Notes under the pieces: generated by a model
Databases searched by the model: none
What the model saw: only the letters and a program-made list of their open reading frames with translations
What the model was told of the DNA's origin: nothing
Virus record (IMG/VR): IMGVR_UViG_3300021958_000026
Source: an uncultured virus (IMG/VR IMGVR_UViG_3300021958_000026)
Lineage: Duplodnaviria; Heunggongvirae; Uroviricota; Caudoviricetes
Length of the DNA: 64,000 bases
Reading direction: 5' to 3' (one strand)
In this document: one piece after another, positions 21,625 to 61,809 of the stretch
Position numbering within the stretch: position 1 is the stretch's first letter
Layout of the letters: each line of letters starts with the position of its first letter
Made by a program: the position numbers and the translations under genes

Positions 21625-21700
21625 TGGTGGAGCTGGGCGGGTTCGAACCGCCGACCCCCTGCTTGCAAAGCAGGTGCTCTCCCAACTGAGCTACAGCCCC
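21625..21700 (-). tRNA. tRNA-Ala(TGC)
   Basis: GGGGCTG...CCTGC TT TGC AA GCAGG...CCA; G3-U70 pair. Confidence 0.95.
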
Positions 21701-22374
21701 AAATCAAAATCTTCTTTCCATAACCATTGTACAAACAGTTTGGTCTGTTCGTCAAGGGGAAATTTGGGTAATATAAAATCATTTAGCATCTTTTTTGATG
21801 CATCTTCATTCGTCCATACTTTTGTGGTAAAATCTACAGACACATTATTACAGATGGGTGCAACCTCTCCTCTAACGTCCTTGATATGTATGGTACGTGC
21901 AAAAGGTTTACCGTCTCTACATATCCATCGTGCCTGTGGTGACATAATCATGTTAGTGTACACTTGATGGAATCTTGATTCACTCATCTGTCCTCTGAAC
22001 TTAGGGACACCAGTTCCGTCTACATCTAAATTCATCATCACTGGAATGAATCGAAGACAAGACACAAACCTTTCATATGGGTCACGTGTCATAGTGAACA
22101 CATCGATGTTGTTCTCATCTATCCAGTCACCTAGTGTAGGATAGAGTTCAAATGCTTGGTCGATTGTGAGGTGAGCATGGTCATGCATTTCAACCTCTTC
22201 CATCTTTAAATTAGGATTATTAAAGAGTGGAAGAACACCATGCAGTGTCCTAAACCGATATTGATGCCCATAGTTCATTTTTACATAGTTCAGTAAAAGT
22301 GAACCTGCAGTTTTAGGTGCATGAAAAAACAACCCTTCAAATTTACGTGTTTCTAAATTTTGTAATCCGTACAT
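21691..22374 (-). CDS. Sulfotransferase family protein
   Basis: [10 protein letters not shown] (PAPS loop), RDPYERFVS. Confidence 0.8.
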
Positions 22375-23290: not shown

Positions 23291-24003
23291 TAGACTTGTC
23301 CATTGTAGTTAGGATTACCCCAAGGGTGGAAGAATCTCACCAATGTGTATCTCCACTTATCACCTGTAAATTTACTATAATCATCAATCCATGCACCATG
23401 TAATCTGTTGCCAGGGAATATGACACATCTATTGAACTTTGCAGGAATGATGTGTTCAACTGTAAAGTCATTCTCTACTGGATACAATAGATTCTTCTGT
23501 TCATCATTATGTATCCATTCACCACCATAGATTGCAGTACCACCATCATCCTCTTTGTCCAAATACACTAGCATGTTAAGTGTTGCACTCAAATCAGGAC
23601 ATGAAAGTTCACTGTCGATATGAGGGTAGTGTTGCAGTTTATTATCAAACACTGTAAGAGTTTGAAAACAGTTCACTTCAATGATGTTCTGAAAACTGTA
23701 TTCACCTTTCCAAAAATGCTGTCTGCATATGTCTTTGATTCTCTCGTTACTGTTAGTGTATAATCTTGTTGGATGACCAACTGTGTCTACAACTCTACAA
23801 TCATTATAGTCAATACCGTTTCTAGAATTCTTTCGTTCTGAGTTGTATTTCCACATCGGCACTGGACGTGACATTAAGTGTTCATAAATGTCATCAGGGT
23901 TCTCGTAAAAGTTATCAATTGTGATAACTTGAGTCTCCTCATCATATTGAGGTTCAATCGTTGGACTTAATGCCCATAATTCTTCTGTTATATAAGGTTT
24001 CAT
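23290..24003 (-). CDS. 2OG-Fe(II) oxygenase-like protein
   Basis: IDNFYENP, PHID, GGTAIY, KFNRCVIF...LHG, R. Confidence 0.8.
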   Translation of the reverse strand: MKPYITEELWALSPTIEPQYDEETQVITIDNFYENPDDIYEHLMSRPVPMWKYNSERKNSRNGIDYNDCRVVDTVGHPTRLYTNSNERIKDICRQHFWKGEYSFQNIIEVNCFQTLTVFDNKLQHYPHIDSELSCPDLSATLNMLVYLDKEDDGGTAIYGGEWIHNDEQKNLLYPVENDFTVEHIIPAKFNRCVIFPGNRLHGAWIDDYSKFTGDKWRYTLVRFFHPWGNPNYNGQV

Positions 24004-24755
24004 TTTAAAAAGTTATAAGACATAGGTGTACCATGTTGAGTGTTATTCAATGGTTCGTTATGTGTAAGGTTAAAGGATATTGATATACGTTCATAGTTGT
24101 CTGCCCTCTCAGGGTCAGGTGCAGGAACACCATGCATAAGATATGAGGGCCATAATAAGAACTCTCCTTCTCTAGGGAAGACTTGTATTTCATGTTGCAT
24201 GGTTGGAGTACCATACACTTTCATGTTTTCTAAACCTTGAATGTCATCATAGTATTCCATCTTTGCACGTGTAGCAAACTCTGCAACGTTATTTGGACTA
24301 AAAAACTTTATAGGTTGTGTGTCAACTGTCTTGACGTAAAATGTTCCTGAAATTAAAGAGTTGACATGGTTATGTGTGTCATGCCAATTTGCACCCTCAT
24401 ATCTGTTGACCCATGCACAAAAATGAATATCTGACCTATTCAATGCATCTACTTGATAATTGTAATGCAATCTAATAAACTCAATGTAAGAGTCTTTCAT
24501 GCAGTTTGCAAAATCCTCAAACCATGGCAATGATTCAGTCTTCTCTCTTGAATCTTCATGAAAATATGATGTGTATGTGTTGTTCACTTCACCATCAGGA
24601 TTACGTTCTTTTATCTCTGCAATGATGTCTCTTACGTCATCTGCAACTTCGTTTAAGTTTAGTGGACAGAATCCTCTGAACATGGGTGTTGCAAACAGTT
24701 GTAAGTGTTCACCTTTTGCAGGTTGATATTGTGTTTTAGGGTTGTTTGGTCTCAT
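24000..24755 (-). CDS. 2OG-Fe(II) oxygenase
   Basis: LFATP, WVN...HNH, SGTFYV, WPSYLMHGV, RISISFN. Confidence 0.85.
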   Translation of the reverse strand: MRPNNPKTQYQPAKGEHLQLFATPMFRGFCPLNLNEVADDVRDIIAEIKERNPDGEVNNTYTSYFHEDSREKTESLPWFEDFANCMKDSYIEFIRLHYNYQVDALNRSDIHFCAWVNRYEGANWHDTHNHVNSLISGTFYVKTVDTQPIKFFSPNNVAEFATRAKMEYYDDIQGLENMKVYGTPTMQHEIQVFPREGEFLLWPSYLMHGVPAPDPERADNYERISISFNLTHNEPLNNTQHGTPMSYNFLK

Positions 24756-50144: not shown

Positions 50145-50161
50145 AATCCTTTATTTATAAG

Positions 50162-50185
50162 AAAGGGGAACTTCAGTTCCCCTTT
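50162..50185 (-). terminator. Rho-independent terminator hairpin
   Basis: AAAGGGGAAC-TGAA-GTTCCCCTTT. Confidence 0.75.
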
Positions 50186-50264
50186 ACAGTTCTACATTTC
50201 TGTGGGAACTCTGAACAATAGAGCATCATTGCCTCAAGCAACATTGCTGTTGGAATGATATCCT

Positions 50265-50540
50265 CTACTTTTTTTCAGGTTGCTCATTCTGTAGTTCGTC
50301 TGTCTGTCTGTCGACTTCTTCAGCAACGTTATCAACGATACCTGTTGCTGTATCAACAGCAAGTGTTCCGACTGATACTACATCATTAGCAACTGCCTTG
50401 GTGATTGTTGCAGTTCCTTTGACTGCTCCATCAACAACGCCAGTTGTAAACTCTTTACCACCTTCAATAACTGCTCCAACTGAGGCACATGAAGGAAGTA
50501 ATACCACAGAAAATAGTAACATATACATTACTATTCTCAT
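50265..50540 (-). CDS. Small lipoprotein; candidate -1 frameshift extends it to 50173
   Basis: Lipobox LPSC, amphipathic G/V/A/T repeats; ends GAA AAA AAG TAG. Confidence 0.75.
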   Translation of the reverse strand: MRIVMYMLLFSVVLLPSCASVGAVIEGGKEFTTGVVDGAVKGTATITKAVANDVVSVGTLAVDTATGIVDNVAEEVDRQTDELQNEQPEKK

Positions 50541-50598: not shown

Positions 50599-50838
50599 TT
50601 ATTTATGTAAGGTGATAACCTGTGGATTATGATGTTCGTAATCATAAAATTTCATAGTCTCTTCTATTTGCATTCTGAAATGTCCATATGCTATAATAAG
50701 TGACATACAAACAAATACTGCAAATGAATATATTACGATATTAAACATTGCAATAGGGAATAGATAGAAGAGTGCAAGTATATGAGCAACCAACACACTG
50801 TACACATAAAACTTGATACTAATCAGTAGATGCCACAT
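50599..50838 (-). CDS. Membrane protein
   Basis: Two hydrophobic segments. Confidence 0.55.
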   Translation of the reverse strand: MWHLLISIKFYVYSVLVAHILALFYLFPIAMFNIVIYSFAVFVCMSLIIAYGHFRMQIEETMKFYDYEHHNPQVITLHK

Positions 50839-50992
50839 CTTTATCTAAAAGTAAATCTTTGAAGTCATTTGAATGCCAATAACTGTCTAGTGTAATATCC
50901 ACTACCAGTGCAATCAAAACGAATGTTAAAATTATTCCGAGATATAAGTTGATGAAAGCATTAATTTTCATCCATCGTATCATGTGTTTCAT
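50819..50992 (-). CDS. Small membrane protein (not in ORF track)
   Basis: MKHMIRWMKINAFINLYLGIILTFVLIALVVD...STD*. Confidence 0.55.
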   Translation of the reverse strand: MKHMIRWMKINAFINLYLGIILTFVLIALVVDITLDSYWHSNDFKDLLLDKDVASTD

Positions 50993-56532: not shown

Positions 56533-56925
56533 TTATAACTTAATTCTATCCCTCAACGATGATGTTGAAAATGAATGTTTTCTGTTAGTGTAGAACACTT
56601 TAATCGGTAGTTCCTCACCTGTGAAGTGTTTGTCTTTATAGTCTTCACCTACAAATCTAACATCTATAGGTGTCGACTCAAGCAAGTCTAATAGACTTTG
56701 TTCAGTGTCATATGGTATCACTTCGTCTACATATTTCACTGCATTTAATTGTACAAATCTCTCGTAGACAGATTGTACTGGTTGATTCTTTTCTTGTCTG
56801 TCGATAGATGGGTCTGTCTGTAATCCTACAATAAGATGGTCACAGTTTTCTTTTGCCTGTTTTAACATAACCACATGACCTGCATGTAAGAGGTCAAATG
56901 CACCACATGTAAATCCTATTGTCAT
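56533..56925 (-). CDS. Glycerol-3-phosphate cytidylyltransferase (TagD-like)
   Basis: GAFDLLHAGH, LIVGLQTD, ER...VKYVDEV, STSSLR; start corrected to MTIGF. Confidence 0.85.
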   Translation of the reverse strand: MTIGFTCGAFDLLHAGHVVMLKQAKENCDHLIVGLQTDPSIDRQEKNQPVQSVYERFVQLNAVKYVDEVIPYDTEQSLLDLLESTPIDVRFVGEDYKDKHFTGEELPIKVFYTNRKHSFSTSSLRDRIKL

Positions 56926-58034
56926 CTTATTATATCTATCTTGTTCATGGTTTCCTGATTCCATACTTCTAACTCTGTTCTCAGTCTACCTTGTTGTTTA
57001 ACATTGTCATATCTTTTCGATGCATGTTTCTTCCACCATGCAATGACATTTTCAAATTCAAATCTATCAAAGTTCTCAGCTTTATTTAGCGTTTCTGTTT
57101 TACCCAATAATACATCACGTACATTTGTGTAACCATACTCTGACATGTAGAATCGTTTCTGTGTCGTTACATCTTGTGCAGTATTCATCACTTTACAAAA
57201 GTGTTCATATGCAGTAGTGTCATATTTTTTAAGATTTGACTTAATAATACCCACCATCTTGGTCTGCATTTTAAGTTTACGTGATGATGCACCTTTATGA
57301 ATCAATGGTTCGCTATCATTTCGTGTTTCAAACCAATCTCTTAATTCAAAGTATATTTCTTCGCCAAGTGTCAGAAGAAATTGACTTTGTGTATCTCCTT
57401 TATATCTTAGATACGGTCTCATACCATCGTACATACTTGCACCTTTGATGTTACCATACAAAGATGTAGTTTCAAATAAACAAAACTCTGTATTATATTT
57501 CTCATTTAACATTCTACGACTTGCATGAGAACAACACACAGCCGCAAGAAGTTTACCACCAAGATAATTAAATCCGAATGGTTGTACAGGGACAATATTA
57601 AATCCCATGATTGCACGTTTGTTGAAGATATCTAAGTCAGGTGTCTGACCAAGATAGACATTACGTGGTTTTGAGTTAATTAGTGGTGAACCAAAACGAA
57701 TGAACCCAACTACAGTATTAGTGTTGGTTTCTTTCACCACAAGTTTTAAAGTCTTGCCTGGATTTTCATCAGGTGAAAATGATGCAACCTTTTCAATCAT
57801 TGCATCAAAGGTTTCATTAGGAAGTTTTGCAACTTCGAAATTCATGTCCATAGGATGCATATTATGTTGTTGGAACATGTCATCTTCAAGTCCAAAACCA
57901 AGCAATGGTGCAGGTAAGTCTTTCACCCTTTCAATTTTTCTTACACGAAAATAATCATCAATACGATTAAAGTCATGGAAGTATTCCATAACTTTCGTTG
58001 CAACTTGAATTGTGTCTTGTTTAGTTAGTTCCAT
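56922..58034 (-). CDS. DUF4338/DruA-like (GNAT/Mom-related) protein
   Basis: VGFIRFGSP...PR, IVPVQPFGFNYLGGKLLA, ETTSLYG...SMYDG. Confidence 0.55.
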   Translation of the reverse strand: MELTKQDTIQVATKVMEYFHDFNRIDDYFRVRKIERVKDLPAPLLGFGLEDDMFQQHNMHPMDMNFEVAKLPNETFDAMIEKVASFSPDENPGKTLKLVVKETNTNTVVGFIRFGSPLINSKPRNVYLGQTPDLDIFNKRAIMGFNIVPVQPFGFNYLGGKLLAAVCCSHASRRMLNEKYNTEFCLFETTSLYGNIKGASMYDGMRPYLRYKGDTQSQFLLTLGEEIYFELRDWFETRNDSEPLIHKGASSRKLKMQTKMVGIIKSNLKKYDTTAYEHFCKVMNTAQDVTTQKRFYMSEYGYTNVRDVLLGKTETLNKAENFDRFEFENVIAWWKKHASKRYDNVKQQGRLRTELEVWNQETMNKIDIIR

Positions 58035-59657: not shown

Positions 59658-60266
59658 TTATCGTTTTTTACAACGTTGTGATGCACGGTCAATTACCTGT
59701 AAGTTGTTATGTACTACGTATGCAGTCAATACAAAGGGCAGAACCATATCTCCATATGTAAGTGAGTCTTCTTCCTCTAGAGTATAGAATGGTGATAAAA
59801 ATAATGTCTTGTGTAATATCAGTCTATCAAAACTAGGTACTTCAGGTAAAAGGGGATTTGCTTCAAAGACACAATCATAATCCATCCCTCTGTCAGTTGT
59901 CCAAACATCTGCAAATTGTAATAACCAAAATGCAGACATTGTGTATGTGTCTACACGTGGTCTTGAATCAAAGGGTATAGACCTCAATTGATTCGGATTT
60001 TCCTTTAACTTTAATCGAATCGACTCTTGTAAAGAATCCATCTTGACACTTTCCAGCAGTTGTGGATGATAGCAACACTCGTACCCCCTCGTAATTGCGA
60101 GTCTGTCCTTCGAGTCTAGATGCCAAGTTGACGGCGTCTCCAATGACGGAATAGTCAAATCTAAGTTCTGACCCCATGTTTCCGACAATGCATTCGCCTG
60201 TGTTGATACCGATACCAACATCAATCCTAGGAAGACCCATCTCTTCAAGTTCTGTAATAAGTTCAT
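59658..60266 (-). CDS. Exported/membrane protein (DUF5658-like C-terminus) overprinted on the cyclase 3' end
   Basis: Signal peptide MNLLQNLKRWVFLGLMLVSVSTQANA; LQFADVWTT...EANPL motif. Confidence 0.6.
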   Translation of the reverse strand: MNLLQNLKRWVFLGLMLVSVSTQANALSETWGQNLDLTIPSLETPSTWHLDSKDRLAITRGYECCYHPQLLESVKMDSLQESIRLKLKENPNQLRSIPFDSRPRVDTYTMSAFWLLQFADVWTTDRGMDYDCVFEANPLLPEVPSFDRLILHKTLFLSPFYTLEEEDSLTYGDMVLPFVLTAYVVHNNLQVIDRASQRCKKR

Positions 60267-61809
60267 CTGCTTTTTCTGAAATTTCCCTTGCAGATTTAAC
60301 TGCCATACCTGCGTGATTTTCACAGTCTAAGGGAGCATTCCAAAACGCCATGATACAATCTCCCATATACTTGTCGATGGTTCCACCGTTTGCAAGTATA
60401 ATTTTGGTCATTGTGTCTAAGTATTTATTAATAAGTTCGACTAAACCTTCAGGGTCATTGTTGTTTTTGTAGTATTCTGACACTGGAGTAAACCCACAGA
60501 TGTCCATGAACAAGAATGTCATCTCCTTTCTTTGTCCACCTAACACTAACATGTCAGGGTTGTCTTGTAATTGTTTGACCATGTCAGGAGATAAATACTT
60601 TTGGAACTGTTTTCTAATCTGTTCCTTGAGTTGATAAGTCTTATAGTATTGATTATATGATGCGTGACCGAAAACTATCAAGGAGGCGATAGATGAGTAG
60701 AAGGTATCGAAAAGAACGAGACTTGAAGTCCACAAATATAAACCCCCACCCACCTGAAATCCTACAACACTTAGACAACCTAACACCCCAAGAGTTGTGG
60801 GAAGTTTGTAGACCATTACCAACGTTATTAGAAGGACTGACAGAAGAAGAACAATTTCTAAAAATTCAAGATAGTAGGATTGTTGTATTTGAACTTCTTG
60901 TAAGACGGTTTGGAGAATTGAGGCTTGAACTTCGTGGGGATACATTGTACCCACTGGAGTTGAAACTGGATTATTCAGACCCTCTGCCGTTAGACCCCAA
61001 ATTAGAATCTTATCCTGAATATCTGACTGCGTAAGGTCAACTGCTGAGATTCTCTCAAAGTGATTCCAATAGGAGATTAATATGTCTCCTGTTGGAGTCG
61101 TTTCTATAGGGTCTTCTCTCCCCATACGAATCCATTCAATACCTACGTCTTCTGTGACTCTTGTCTGATAATTTGGTTGGTCGTAATATGCACGTAACAC
61201 TTCTAACACTATCGATGGGTAAATCTCATCGTTTGCAGTAACAATCAACGGCGCACTACGCACCGTTCCGTCAAAGTTTGGTGTACCACTAAATGGTGGA
61301 GTTGCAGTTGTGACTCCTACACCGTATGTGTTCTCTTGTAAGATAGGAAGAGGTGCAACGATTCCTGTAAAATTCCACGCAGAATTTTTTATGTCTCCAC
61401 CACCGAACACTGAAGTGTTAACAAATGGCGCAGAACCTTTTTGTATTTGTGCAGATGGAGCTGCAGATAAAATTGTAAGTCTGTTGATTAGTCCCTCTGC
61501 AAGTTTTAAATCTTCCTCAGGTTGTCTATCAGGTTTTGCAAAGAGTTGTGTAAACACATGAGTGTTAGTGTAATGAGAGTTGAGAAGTAAATCAGTGTAG
61601 ATACCTCTCTTGAATGGATATTGTCCGAACTCTTCTAGTGACCTTTCGTCTATGTCTACTAAGACAATATCATTACTGTGAATCTTTTCTTGTTGTTGGT
61701 GTAAGAAATCGAACCATGACCACTGAATGTTTTCTACGATGTATGGATTCCAAACTTTGAGTCCGACTAGTAACGCAATAGTTACTAAGACTGTTTTCCA
61801 ACTATACAC
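59968..61809 (-). CDS. CHASE2-domain class III adenylate cyclase
   Basis: TM-CHASE2 (IVLVDIDERSL..GQYP, DGTVR)-3TM; FMDICGFT, DKYMGD, GIGINTG, DYSVIGDAVNLASRLE; Lys/Asp pair indicates ATP specificity. Confidence 0.93.
   Translation of the reverse strand: MYSWKTVLVTIALLVGLKVWNPYIVENIQWSWFDFLHQQQEKIHSNDIVLVDIDERSLEEFGQYPFKRGIYTDLLLNSHYTNTHVFTQLFAKPDRQPEEDLKLAEGLINRLTILSAAPSAQIQKGSAPFVNTSVFGGGDIKNSAWNFTGIVAPLPILQENTYGVGVTTATPPFSGTPNFDGTVRSAPLIVTANDEIYPSIVLEVLRAYYDQPNYQTRVTEDVGIEWIRMGREDPIETTPTGDILISYWNHFERISAVDLTQSDIQDKILIWGLTAEGLNNPVSTPVGTMYPHEVQASILQTVLQEVQIQQSYYLEFLEIVLLLSVLLITLVMVYKLPTTLGVLGCLSVVGFQVGGGLYLWTSSLVLFDTFYSSIASLIVFGHASYNQYYKTYQLKEQIRKQFQKYLSPDMVKQLQDNPDMLVLGGQRKEMTFLFMDICGFTPVSEYYKNNNDPEGLVELINKYLDTMTKIILANGGTIDKYMGDCIMAFWNAPLDCENHAGMAVKSAREISEKADELITELEEMGLPRIDVGIGINTGECIVGNMGSELRFDYSVIGDAVNLASRLEGQTRNYEGVRVLLSSTTAGKCQDGFFTRVDSIKVKGKSESIEVYTL

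Follow-up and report, generated by a model that had tools for sequence, protein, structure and literature searches.

Among phages, the programmed frameshifts with good support are mostly those of tail chaperones, capsid genes and a small number of replication genes, and the described systems used for comparison here are the lambda G/GT, dnaX, IS3-family and cdd frameshifts. The locus set beside them is a small lipoprotein gene of an uncultured aquatic, T4-like virus of the Caudoviricetes (IMG/VR record IMGVR_UViG_3300021958_000026), whose 64,000 nucleotides (nt) make up the whole stretch of DNA analyzed, called the window in what follows. To judge from its sequence and those of its relatives, this gene very probably ends in a programmed -1 ribosomal frameshift site, from which a short and an extended form of the protein would be made. 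Such a frameshift, adding a Cys-x6-Cys extension to the lipoprotein, had been proposed in a first-pass annotation of the window, and the comparison of the slippery heptamer, of the -1 open reading frame (ORF) and of the downstream hairpin supports it.

In its layout, the locus is closest to lambda G/GT. In both, the slip site closes the upstream ORF, and the minor, C-terminally extended form (a proposed one in the locus here) contains the whole of the short one. The lambda heptamer, G_GGA_AAG, is also used by 18 of 92 sequence contexts of the family described here, and as in the G/GT-type analogues, the site keeps its position and phase in diverged phages even as the sequences drift. The G/GT frameshift and its tailed-phage analogues were reportedly described by Levin, Hendrix and Casjens in 1993 and by Xu, Hendrix and Duda in 2004. 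However, the two genes have no sequence relation (no PHROG or Pfam match). G/GT is a cytoplasmic chaperone encoded between the tail tube and tape measure genes, whereas the protein here is a predicted exported lipoprotein from a replication/hypervariable region. Its extension is only 31-74 amino acids (aa) long, and most lineages add a 3' hairpin.

In its signal, the locus is closest to dnaX and the IS3 family. The dnaX site combines A_AAA_AAG with a 3' stem-loop and a Shine-Dalgarno-like element about 10 nt 5' of the heptamer. The same heptamer, a stem-loop a few bases downstream and two products at a set ratio are common to the Escherichia coli tau/gamma system and to the one proposed here, but the shifted dnaX product is the shorter one, ended by an immediate -1 stop, whereas here it is the longer one, and the proteins are unrelated. 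IS3-family orfA-orfB shares the heptamer class, a 3' structure (hairpin or pseudoknot) and a fusion reached only by slipping. There the downstream frame is a long catalytic domain with a longer overlap, while here it is a short tail, and no mobile-element features were found in the surroundings of the lipoprotein gene. In Bacillus subtilis cdd, Lys-codon slippage at the gene end likewise lengthens some of the subunits by a short C-terminal extension, but the site is CGA_AAG, the stimulator is an upstream Shine-Dalgarno-like element, and the product is a cytoplasmic enzyme for which we know of no conserved family-wide tail domain. As a mechanism, the X_XXY_YYZ -1 frameshift proposed here is classical; the novelty lies in the gene family and in a clear record of heptamer exchange. 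It would add to the known cases an exported lipoprotein family that is matched only in uncultured aquatic T4-like phages. No description of a frameshift in this lipoprotein was found in the literature outside subscription journals, and the accessible part of the PRFect paper does not mention lipoproteins (PMC10885494).

The Probable Slip Site in the Window

Every gene of the window is carried by the minus strand, as are all the features described in this section. In the zero frame, the lipoprotein gene (50265..50540) encodes a 91-aa precursor, MRIVMYMLLFSVVLLPSC ASVGAVIEGGKEFTTGVVDG...DRQTDELQNEQPEKK, with a hydrophobic signal, Cys18 (in LLPSC) and a TAG stop at 50267-50265. Its 3' end reads CAA CCT GAA AAA AAG TAG, with seven A's at 50275-50269 and a G at 50268. 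Direct reading thus bears out the gene end and the in-phase A_AAA_AAG reported earlier. The heptamer (50268..50274) stands in X_XXY_YYZ phase, and its AAG is the final sense codon of the short form. Directly 5' of it lies a -1-frame TGA (50275..50277) that confines the frame change to the heptamer: because this stop abuts it, the -1 ORF can be entered from upstream only inside the heptamer.

Read from G50268, the -1 frame runs through 31 codons, VEDIIPTAMLLEAMMLYCSEFPQKCRTVKGN, up to a TGA at 50175-50173. This extension (50173..50268) would bring the long-form precursor to 122 aa. As the earlier reading had it, the 31-codon frame ends inside an intrinsic-terminator-like hairpin with a T-rich tail (50156..50182; GGGGAAC-TGAA-GTTCCCC), in which the GGGGAAC/GTTCCCC stem at 50182-50165 encloses a 4-nt loop that holds the -1-frame TGA. 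Between the slip site and the terminator, a stem-loop occupies 50219..50267, with an outer UAGAG/CUCUA pairing from +1 and a main stem UAUCAUUCC...GG.AAUGAUG from +8. In the window genome by itself, this pattern is not clearly beyond chance and could be chance, so the case rests on the comparison with relatives.

Conservation and Exchange of the Heptamer

Three scans of uncultured viral contigs, among which the protein is common, yielded the loci L001-L225. The 224 loci with a complete 3' end, taken together with the window, collapse to 121 distinct 210-nt contexts. The locus L001 is identical to the window here, and the nearest record, G001, encodes an identical protein. A protein search gave 532 clusters, of which the best 120 were listed, and the family amounts to 39 representative clusters at 50% identity. 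Informative names are absent among the best 120 of the 532 clusters, which carry "hypothetical protein", gene-call coordinates and a single phosphodiesterase/alkaline phosphatase D-like label. Gene callers miss the tail, and every database entry examined for the family holds the short form only.

A strict in-phase X_XXY_YYZ within the last three codons, followed by a -1 ORF with a C-x5-6-C motif, is present in 92 of the 121 contexts. Besides the 18 with the lambda heptamer, 66 of these carry A_AAA_AAG, six C_CCA_AAA, one C_CCA_AAC and one G_GGA_AAC. Their -1 ORFs are 31-74 codons long (median 41), and the motif at the C-terminus is usually Y-C-[ST]-x-N-P-x-E-C. A relaxed G_GAA_AAG (GAG GAA AAG), again with the motif in the -1 frame, is found in three contexts (L089, L126 and L135). 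The arrangement recurs in 95 of the 121 contexts, down to about 35-45% protein identity. Heptamer and tail are both missing in 26 contexts, and 22 of the 23 tree rows that represent heptamer-less contexts form one clade with a support of 94 (SH-aLRT, Shimodaira-Hasegawa-like approximate likelihood ratio test), whose proteins mostly end in ...PDFPTG[EK]LK... Outside that clade, the remaining heptamer-less contexts are L174, L220 and L218. The first-pass annotation had named homologues lacking the heptamer or the -1 ORF as evidence that would tell against it; all tail-bearing homologues have the slip site except L218. Across the family, the in-phase slippery heptamer is kept with variable spelling, the -1 ORF is kept as coding sequence, and a hairpin is present in most.

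The heptamer has been exchanged repeatedly. A maximum-likelihood tree was made from 101 distinct mature proteins, with the last 8 residues removed (70 columns, many forks unresolved). On this tree the heptamer type changes 18 times, and at least 5 changes each of A_AAA_AAG and G_GGA_AAG are required even when only the well-supported branches are considered. Near-identical proteins can differ only in the slippery heptamer, as do those of L144 (...TPEKK) and L156 (...APEGK). Replacement of one in-phase heptamer by another at the end of the gene would be hard to explain unless slipperiness itself were selected. The family thus offers a clean natural experiment in slip-site evolution, in which at least 5 heptamers have been exchanged with phase and position fixed.

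The Extension as Coding Sequence

Substitutions were counted along 45 nearest-neighbor edges among 81 distinct extension sequences. At codon positions 1, 2 and 3 of the -1 frame, there are 120, 77 and 230 differences (chi-square p = 1e-19). Codon changes are synonymous versus non-synonymous in a ratio of 158:178 in the -1 frame, as against 45:290 and 33:302 in the other phases. In the window's own group A, 7, 2 and 18 of 25 columns per codon position are variable. Purifying selection acts on both the lipoprotein and the -1 extension across the recurrent contexts, and this substitution pattern indicates that the -1 ORF evolves as coding sequence.

An alignment of the 72 distinct extension peptides shows a short conserved start, then a charged linker that varies in length, an amphipathic helix and a Cys loop, whose two Cys never vary among 45 aligned sequences. 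The extension is shortest in the window's group, where the linker is absent. Within lineages, the starts are conserved directly from the slip site onward (VxRSFFKPF, GLSLFSRR, RISSFRQF). The -1-frame stop abuts the heptamer in 36 of the 92 strict contexts, including the window type (L001), and in no context are more than 16 codons of the -1 frame open upstream of the heptamer.

The Downstream Hairpin

In RNAfold, the 55 nt after the heptamer of the window fold at -15.0 kcal/mol, with the UAGAG/CUCUA pairing and then, from +8, UAUCAUUCC/GG.AAUGAUG around a small inner stem. The hairpin announced for this region is therefore present at 50267-50219, but the inner stem drawn for it, CAACA-GCAA-UGUUG with a GNRA loop, is not what the fold favors. 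Those bases are complementary in sequence without being the conserved part of the hairpin, and RNAfold prefers AGCA/UGCU inside the same structure.

When the 45 nt from +4 are compared with same-size segments of their own locus, only 2.5% of these are more stable in the case of L001, which equals the window. Among 70 distinct sequences, the 45-nt segment belongs to the most stable 5% in 29, to the most stable 10% in 34 and to the most stable 25% in 48. The stems differ in sequence between lineages and begin 5-8 nt after the heptamer in most; at a canonical site, a stimulatory structure is expected about 5-9 nt 3' of the heptamer. RNAalifold marks compensatory changes at 4 of 10 pairs in 14 group-B-type sequences, and at 2 of 16 pairs in 11 group-A sequences that include the window.

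Alternative Explanations

Several observations weigh against a programmed frameshift and are gathered here, together with the explanations that they would favor. L218 has its Cys tail in the +1 frame and, with GAA GAA AAG AAG TAG at the gene end, no slippery heptamer; this could reflect misassembly or a genuine variant. In the window, the 70-nt segment that follows the heptamer is unremarkable in stability (z = -0.9 against mononucleotide shuffles), and a fold of the region with z = -4.3 includes the terminator and owes much to it. Seven of the 70 sequences compared above are less stable than the median segment of their own locus (subfamily L198-L224, stems about 20 nt downstream), and the C_CCA_AAA lineage has a weak downstream fold. 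A hairpin thus follows the slip site in most lineages, but not universally: it is a frequent but not obligatory companion.

Heptamers of this kind also occur at other gene ends of the window. Among its 110 minus-strand ORFs of at least 60 aa, an in-phase XXXYYYZ falls within the last three codons in six, three of which are followed by a -1 ORF of at least 29 codons. On such a background, a Lys-rich C-terminus, an open frame and a terminator might coincide by chance; alternatively, a single ORF might have been broken by an insertion or deletion (indel) or by an assembly error. Opposed to both ideas are the 95 contexts that share the arrangement, with purifying selection on its two parts, and the divergence of the related contigs, which excludes redundant copies of one assembly. 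The Cys motif lies in the zero frame in none of the 121 contexts. An uninterrupted fused protein was found neither among nine of the best 120 of the 532 clusters, the four longest included, nor among the 24 examined of the 39 representative clusters, and the long proteins among the nine are extended at the N-terminus only. At the slip site, the contigs of three sequencing runs (two from RNA libraries, one from DNA) contain no inserted or deleted letter. A run of eight A's, raised earlier as a possible sign of misassembly of one continuous ORF, occurs in no contig or sequencing run. Chance or decay as the origin of the pattern has a probability close to nil in our estimation.

The same contigs bear on a second explanation, in which RNA polymerase stutters on the A7 run and yields A8 transcripts that fuse the frames, without any slip of the ribosome. 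Some bacteria are known to reach the same outcome by slippage on homopolymers, for instance in Thermus dnaX, and runs of 6-7 A occur in the window and in 65 other distinct contexts. Since contigs drop rare variants, they exclude a consensus A8 but do not address a minority of slipped transcripts; for this reason, the A7 without indel in the two RNA-library contigs speaks only weakly against polymerase slippage. More telling are 26 of the 92 strict sites, in which no more than 3-4 identical bases stand in a row and which still obey the zero-frame X_XXY_YYZ pattern, relevant to tRNA re-pairing and not to polymerase. Hairpins 5-8 nt downstream also fit a ribosomal pause. As these 26 sites have short runs, the exchange of heptamers favors slippage of the ribosome over that of RNA polymerase, and transcriptional slippage appears extremely improbable.

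The -1 ORF might also be a separate small gene, unjoined to the lipoprotein and translated either from a start of its own or by ribosomes that re-initiate once they have passed the lipoprotein stop. In-frame ATG, GTG or TTG codons precede the Cys motif in 76 of the 92 -1 ORFs, and the window has ATG at codons 9, 14 and 15. No such codon is present in the other 16 (L054-L058, for example), and it is only for these that independent initiation is excluded, because they have no start codon. In the groups examined, no start codon stands beside the zero-frame stop, and in the window, the GAGGA about 17 nt before the first ATG is too far away for a usual ribosome-binding site. A separate gene would not account for the conservation within lineages of the residues directly after the slip site, and gives no reason for the obligatory in-phase heptamer. 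We consider it very improbable, and continue with a programmed -1 frameshift as the preferred reading.

Two other gene ends of the window carry in-phase heptamers. T_TTA_AAA (24000-24012) ends a 2OG-Fe(II) oxygenase gene (24000-24755), and the following gene occupies the -1 frame, with a 4-base start/stop overlap at 24000-24003. T_TTG_GGG (21691-21700) ends the gene at 21691-22374 and is followed by a 29-codon -1 ORF. Both are probably ordinary overlaps.

Proposed Mechanism

During translation of the lipoprotein gene, most ribosomes would read GAA AAA AAG and stop at TAG, giving the 91-aa precursor, or about 74 aa after cleavage at Cys18. The stem-loop a few bases downstream would hold some ribosomes over A_AAA_AAG, where both Lys-tRNAs would slip back by one base (from AAA/AAG to AAA/AAA). 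The slipped ribosomes would then translate the 31 codons of the -1 frame and stop in the terminator loop. The resulting long form would share the lipid anchor and the long helical body of the short form, and would carry in addition a hydrophobic/amphipathic helix closed by a Cys-x6-Cys loop.

From the sequences we infer slipping in the host and its efficiency, a disulfide, an envelope location and a function, which probably concerns the cell envelope. The two forms would act there together, in a ratio fixed by the efficiency of the slip. Superinfection exclusion and lysis control, the roles suggested in the first-pass annotation, are guesses. A more specific and rather unlikely model is that the two isoforms co-assemble through the shared long helix into a lipid-anchored oligomer, in which the disulfide-looped helix on some subunits docks an envelope partner. 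Recoding would then tune a widespread device with which abundant aquatic T4-like phages remodel the envelope or exclude superinfection. If this were true, the device would be one previously unrecognized. Candidate docking partners among the neighbors are the small membrane proteins, a secreted Y-C-x-x-N-P-x-E-C protein, curlin-repeat proteins and spanins.

Nine tRNA genes are found in the window between 4150 and 56532 (Leu, Pro, Arg, Ser, Ala, Thr, Asp, Glu and Gly). The set does not include tRNA-Lys, the tRNA expected to slip at A_AAA_AAG.

The Protein and Its Family

Bacterial lipoproteins, the substrates of signal peptidase II, have a charged n-region, a hydrophobic h-region and a lipobox, [LVI][ASTVI][GAS]C, with an invariant Cys. 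In the window, the signal MRIVMYMLLFSVVLLPSC has an n-region, an h-region and the Cys, together with an unusual Pro at -2. Relatives have the canonical lipoboxes AASC, LASC, ISGC and AVGC. Cys18 is invariant in an alignment of 14 sequences and kept in at least 90% of 65 sequences. The Pfam family LPAM_1 matches one of five members at E = 0.36.

Searches of the lipoprotein against Pfam, PHROGs and PDB sequences gave nothing above threshold. In the ESM Atlas, only viral hypothetical clusters and DUF6726 came up, the latter at 0.88 and below the level of a lead; DUF6726 was then set aside, with a Pfam match in only one of five members at E = 0.72. AlphaFold2 models the short form as one long helix at low confidence (mean pLDDT, the predicted local distance difference test score, of 57). 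For the extension alone (L201 type, 71 aa), the mean pLDDT is 69.6, with a disordered linker and a helix at residues 33-65 at pLDDT 83-86.

Several other assignments were tried and rejected. CP12 matches 4 of 45 extensions below the Pfam threshold (best E = 0.025), HdeA matches five of 45, again below threshold (best E = 0.038), and HdeB appears in the PDB search at E = 0.32; the resemblance of the tail to CP12 and HdeA/B is no evidence of membership. An o-spanin of the Rz1-like type has no PHROG match in its favor and no i-spanin neighbor in the window. A lambda-type G/GT chaperone was discarded as well, given the position of the gene between DNA polymerase and SNase/UvsX and the lack of a family match.

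Genomic Neighborhood

The lipoprotein gene belongs to a replication module, where it lies between DNA polymerase and UvsX; its neighbors are an SNase-type nuclease, UvsX, a gp41-type helicase and DNA polymerase. Between the polymerase of the window and those of T4-like cyanophages, identity reaches 48% at most. The lipoprotein has no tblastn match among 50,697 cultured-phage records, and a comparison with 185,579 prokaryote species, each represented by a single genome, was likewise negative. When the region was compared with cultured phages by blastn, only the neighboring nuclease gene of cyanomyophages matched. The runs that hold the stretch are labeled as estuary, marine, seawater, freshwater, soil and wastewater metagenomes.

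The genes around the lipoprotein gene vary between lineages. A 57-aa single-pass membrane protein (50819-50992) has homologues upstream in 45 distinct contexts and may be a functional partner. A second small membrane protein (50599-50838) is encoded just upstream of the lipoprotein gene, and no family matches either of the two. Directly downstream, in 33 distinct contexts, is the gene of a secreted protein of about 155 aa that is DUF5658-like (E about 2e-4, below the Pfam cut-off), as at L103:1644-2108, L060:1215-1721 and L201:1681-2229. Near its N-terminus stands YYCDNNPxEC, much like the YCSxNPxEC tail of the extension. The homologue in the window (59664-60095), with YECCYHPQ, is 9 kb away.

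Other neighbors are restricted to fewer contexts. A T4-lysozyme-like protein is encoded upstream in four. An overlapping i-spanin/o-spanin pair lies just upstream in 7 of 7 C_CCA_AAA/C contexts, as with L083:26-409 and L083:327-887, which match phrog_739 and phrog_812, the second protein having the lipobox LIISGC. Because this separate pair is upstream, the frameshifted gene is additional to the spanins in the C_CCA_AAA/C lineage. Curlin-repeat proteins are found upstream in 21 contexts, and in groups B and C2, their gene directly adjoins the lipoprotein gene. They match Pfam Curlin_rpt at 25.0 bits (L060:94-624) and 21.3 bits (L067:480-1379) for a cut-off of 20.7. A curli gene is absent from the window. 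Taken together, the neighbors speak for the cell envelope without singling out any one function. The frameshifted gene gives a testable handle on an envelope module adjoining the unexplained curli-like genes of pelagimyophage-type phages (PMC7029224). The accessible text of that paper, which treats phage curli genes, mentions neither lipoprotein nor frameshift.

Possible promoters were also considered. The sequence TATAAATA stands at 50152-50159, 8 nt before the start of the nuclease gene, and CATAAATA at 50600-50607, about 60 nt before the start of the lipoprotein gene. We take TATAAATA to be the T4 late-promoter consensus, which both sites would resemble. In the window, TATAAATA is not enriched (3 found versus 4.0 expected), and the timing of expression, which the first-pass annotation took to be late, can therefore not be read from it.

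Farther along the window, a 613-aa protein (59971-61809) combines a CHASE2 sensor with adenylate/guanylate cyclase domains, and FecR-like, NifU-like, Hsp20 and redoxin genes are located near it. A 370-aa protein (56925-58034) gives a borderline match to Druantia DruA, at 27.3 bits for a cut-off of 27.

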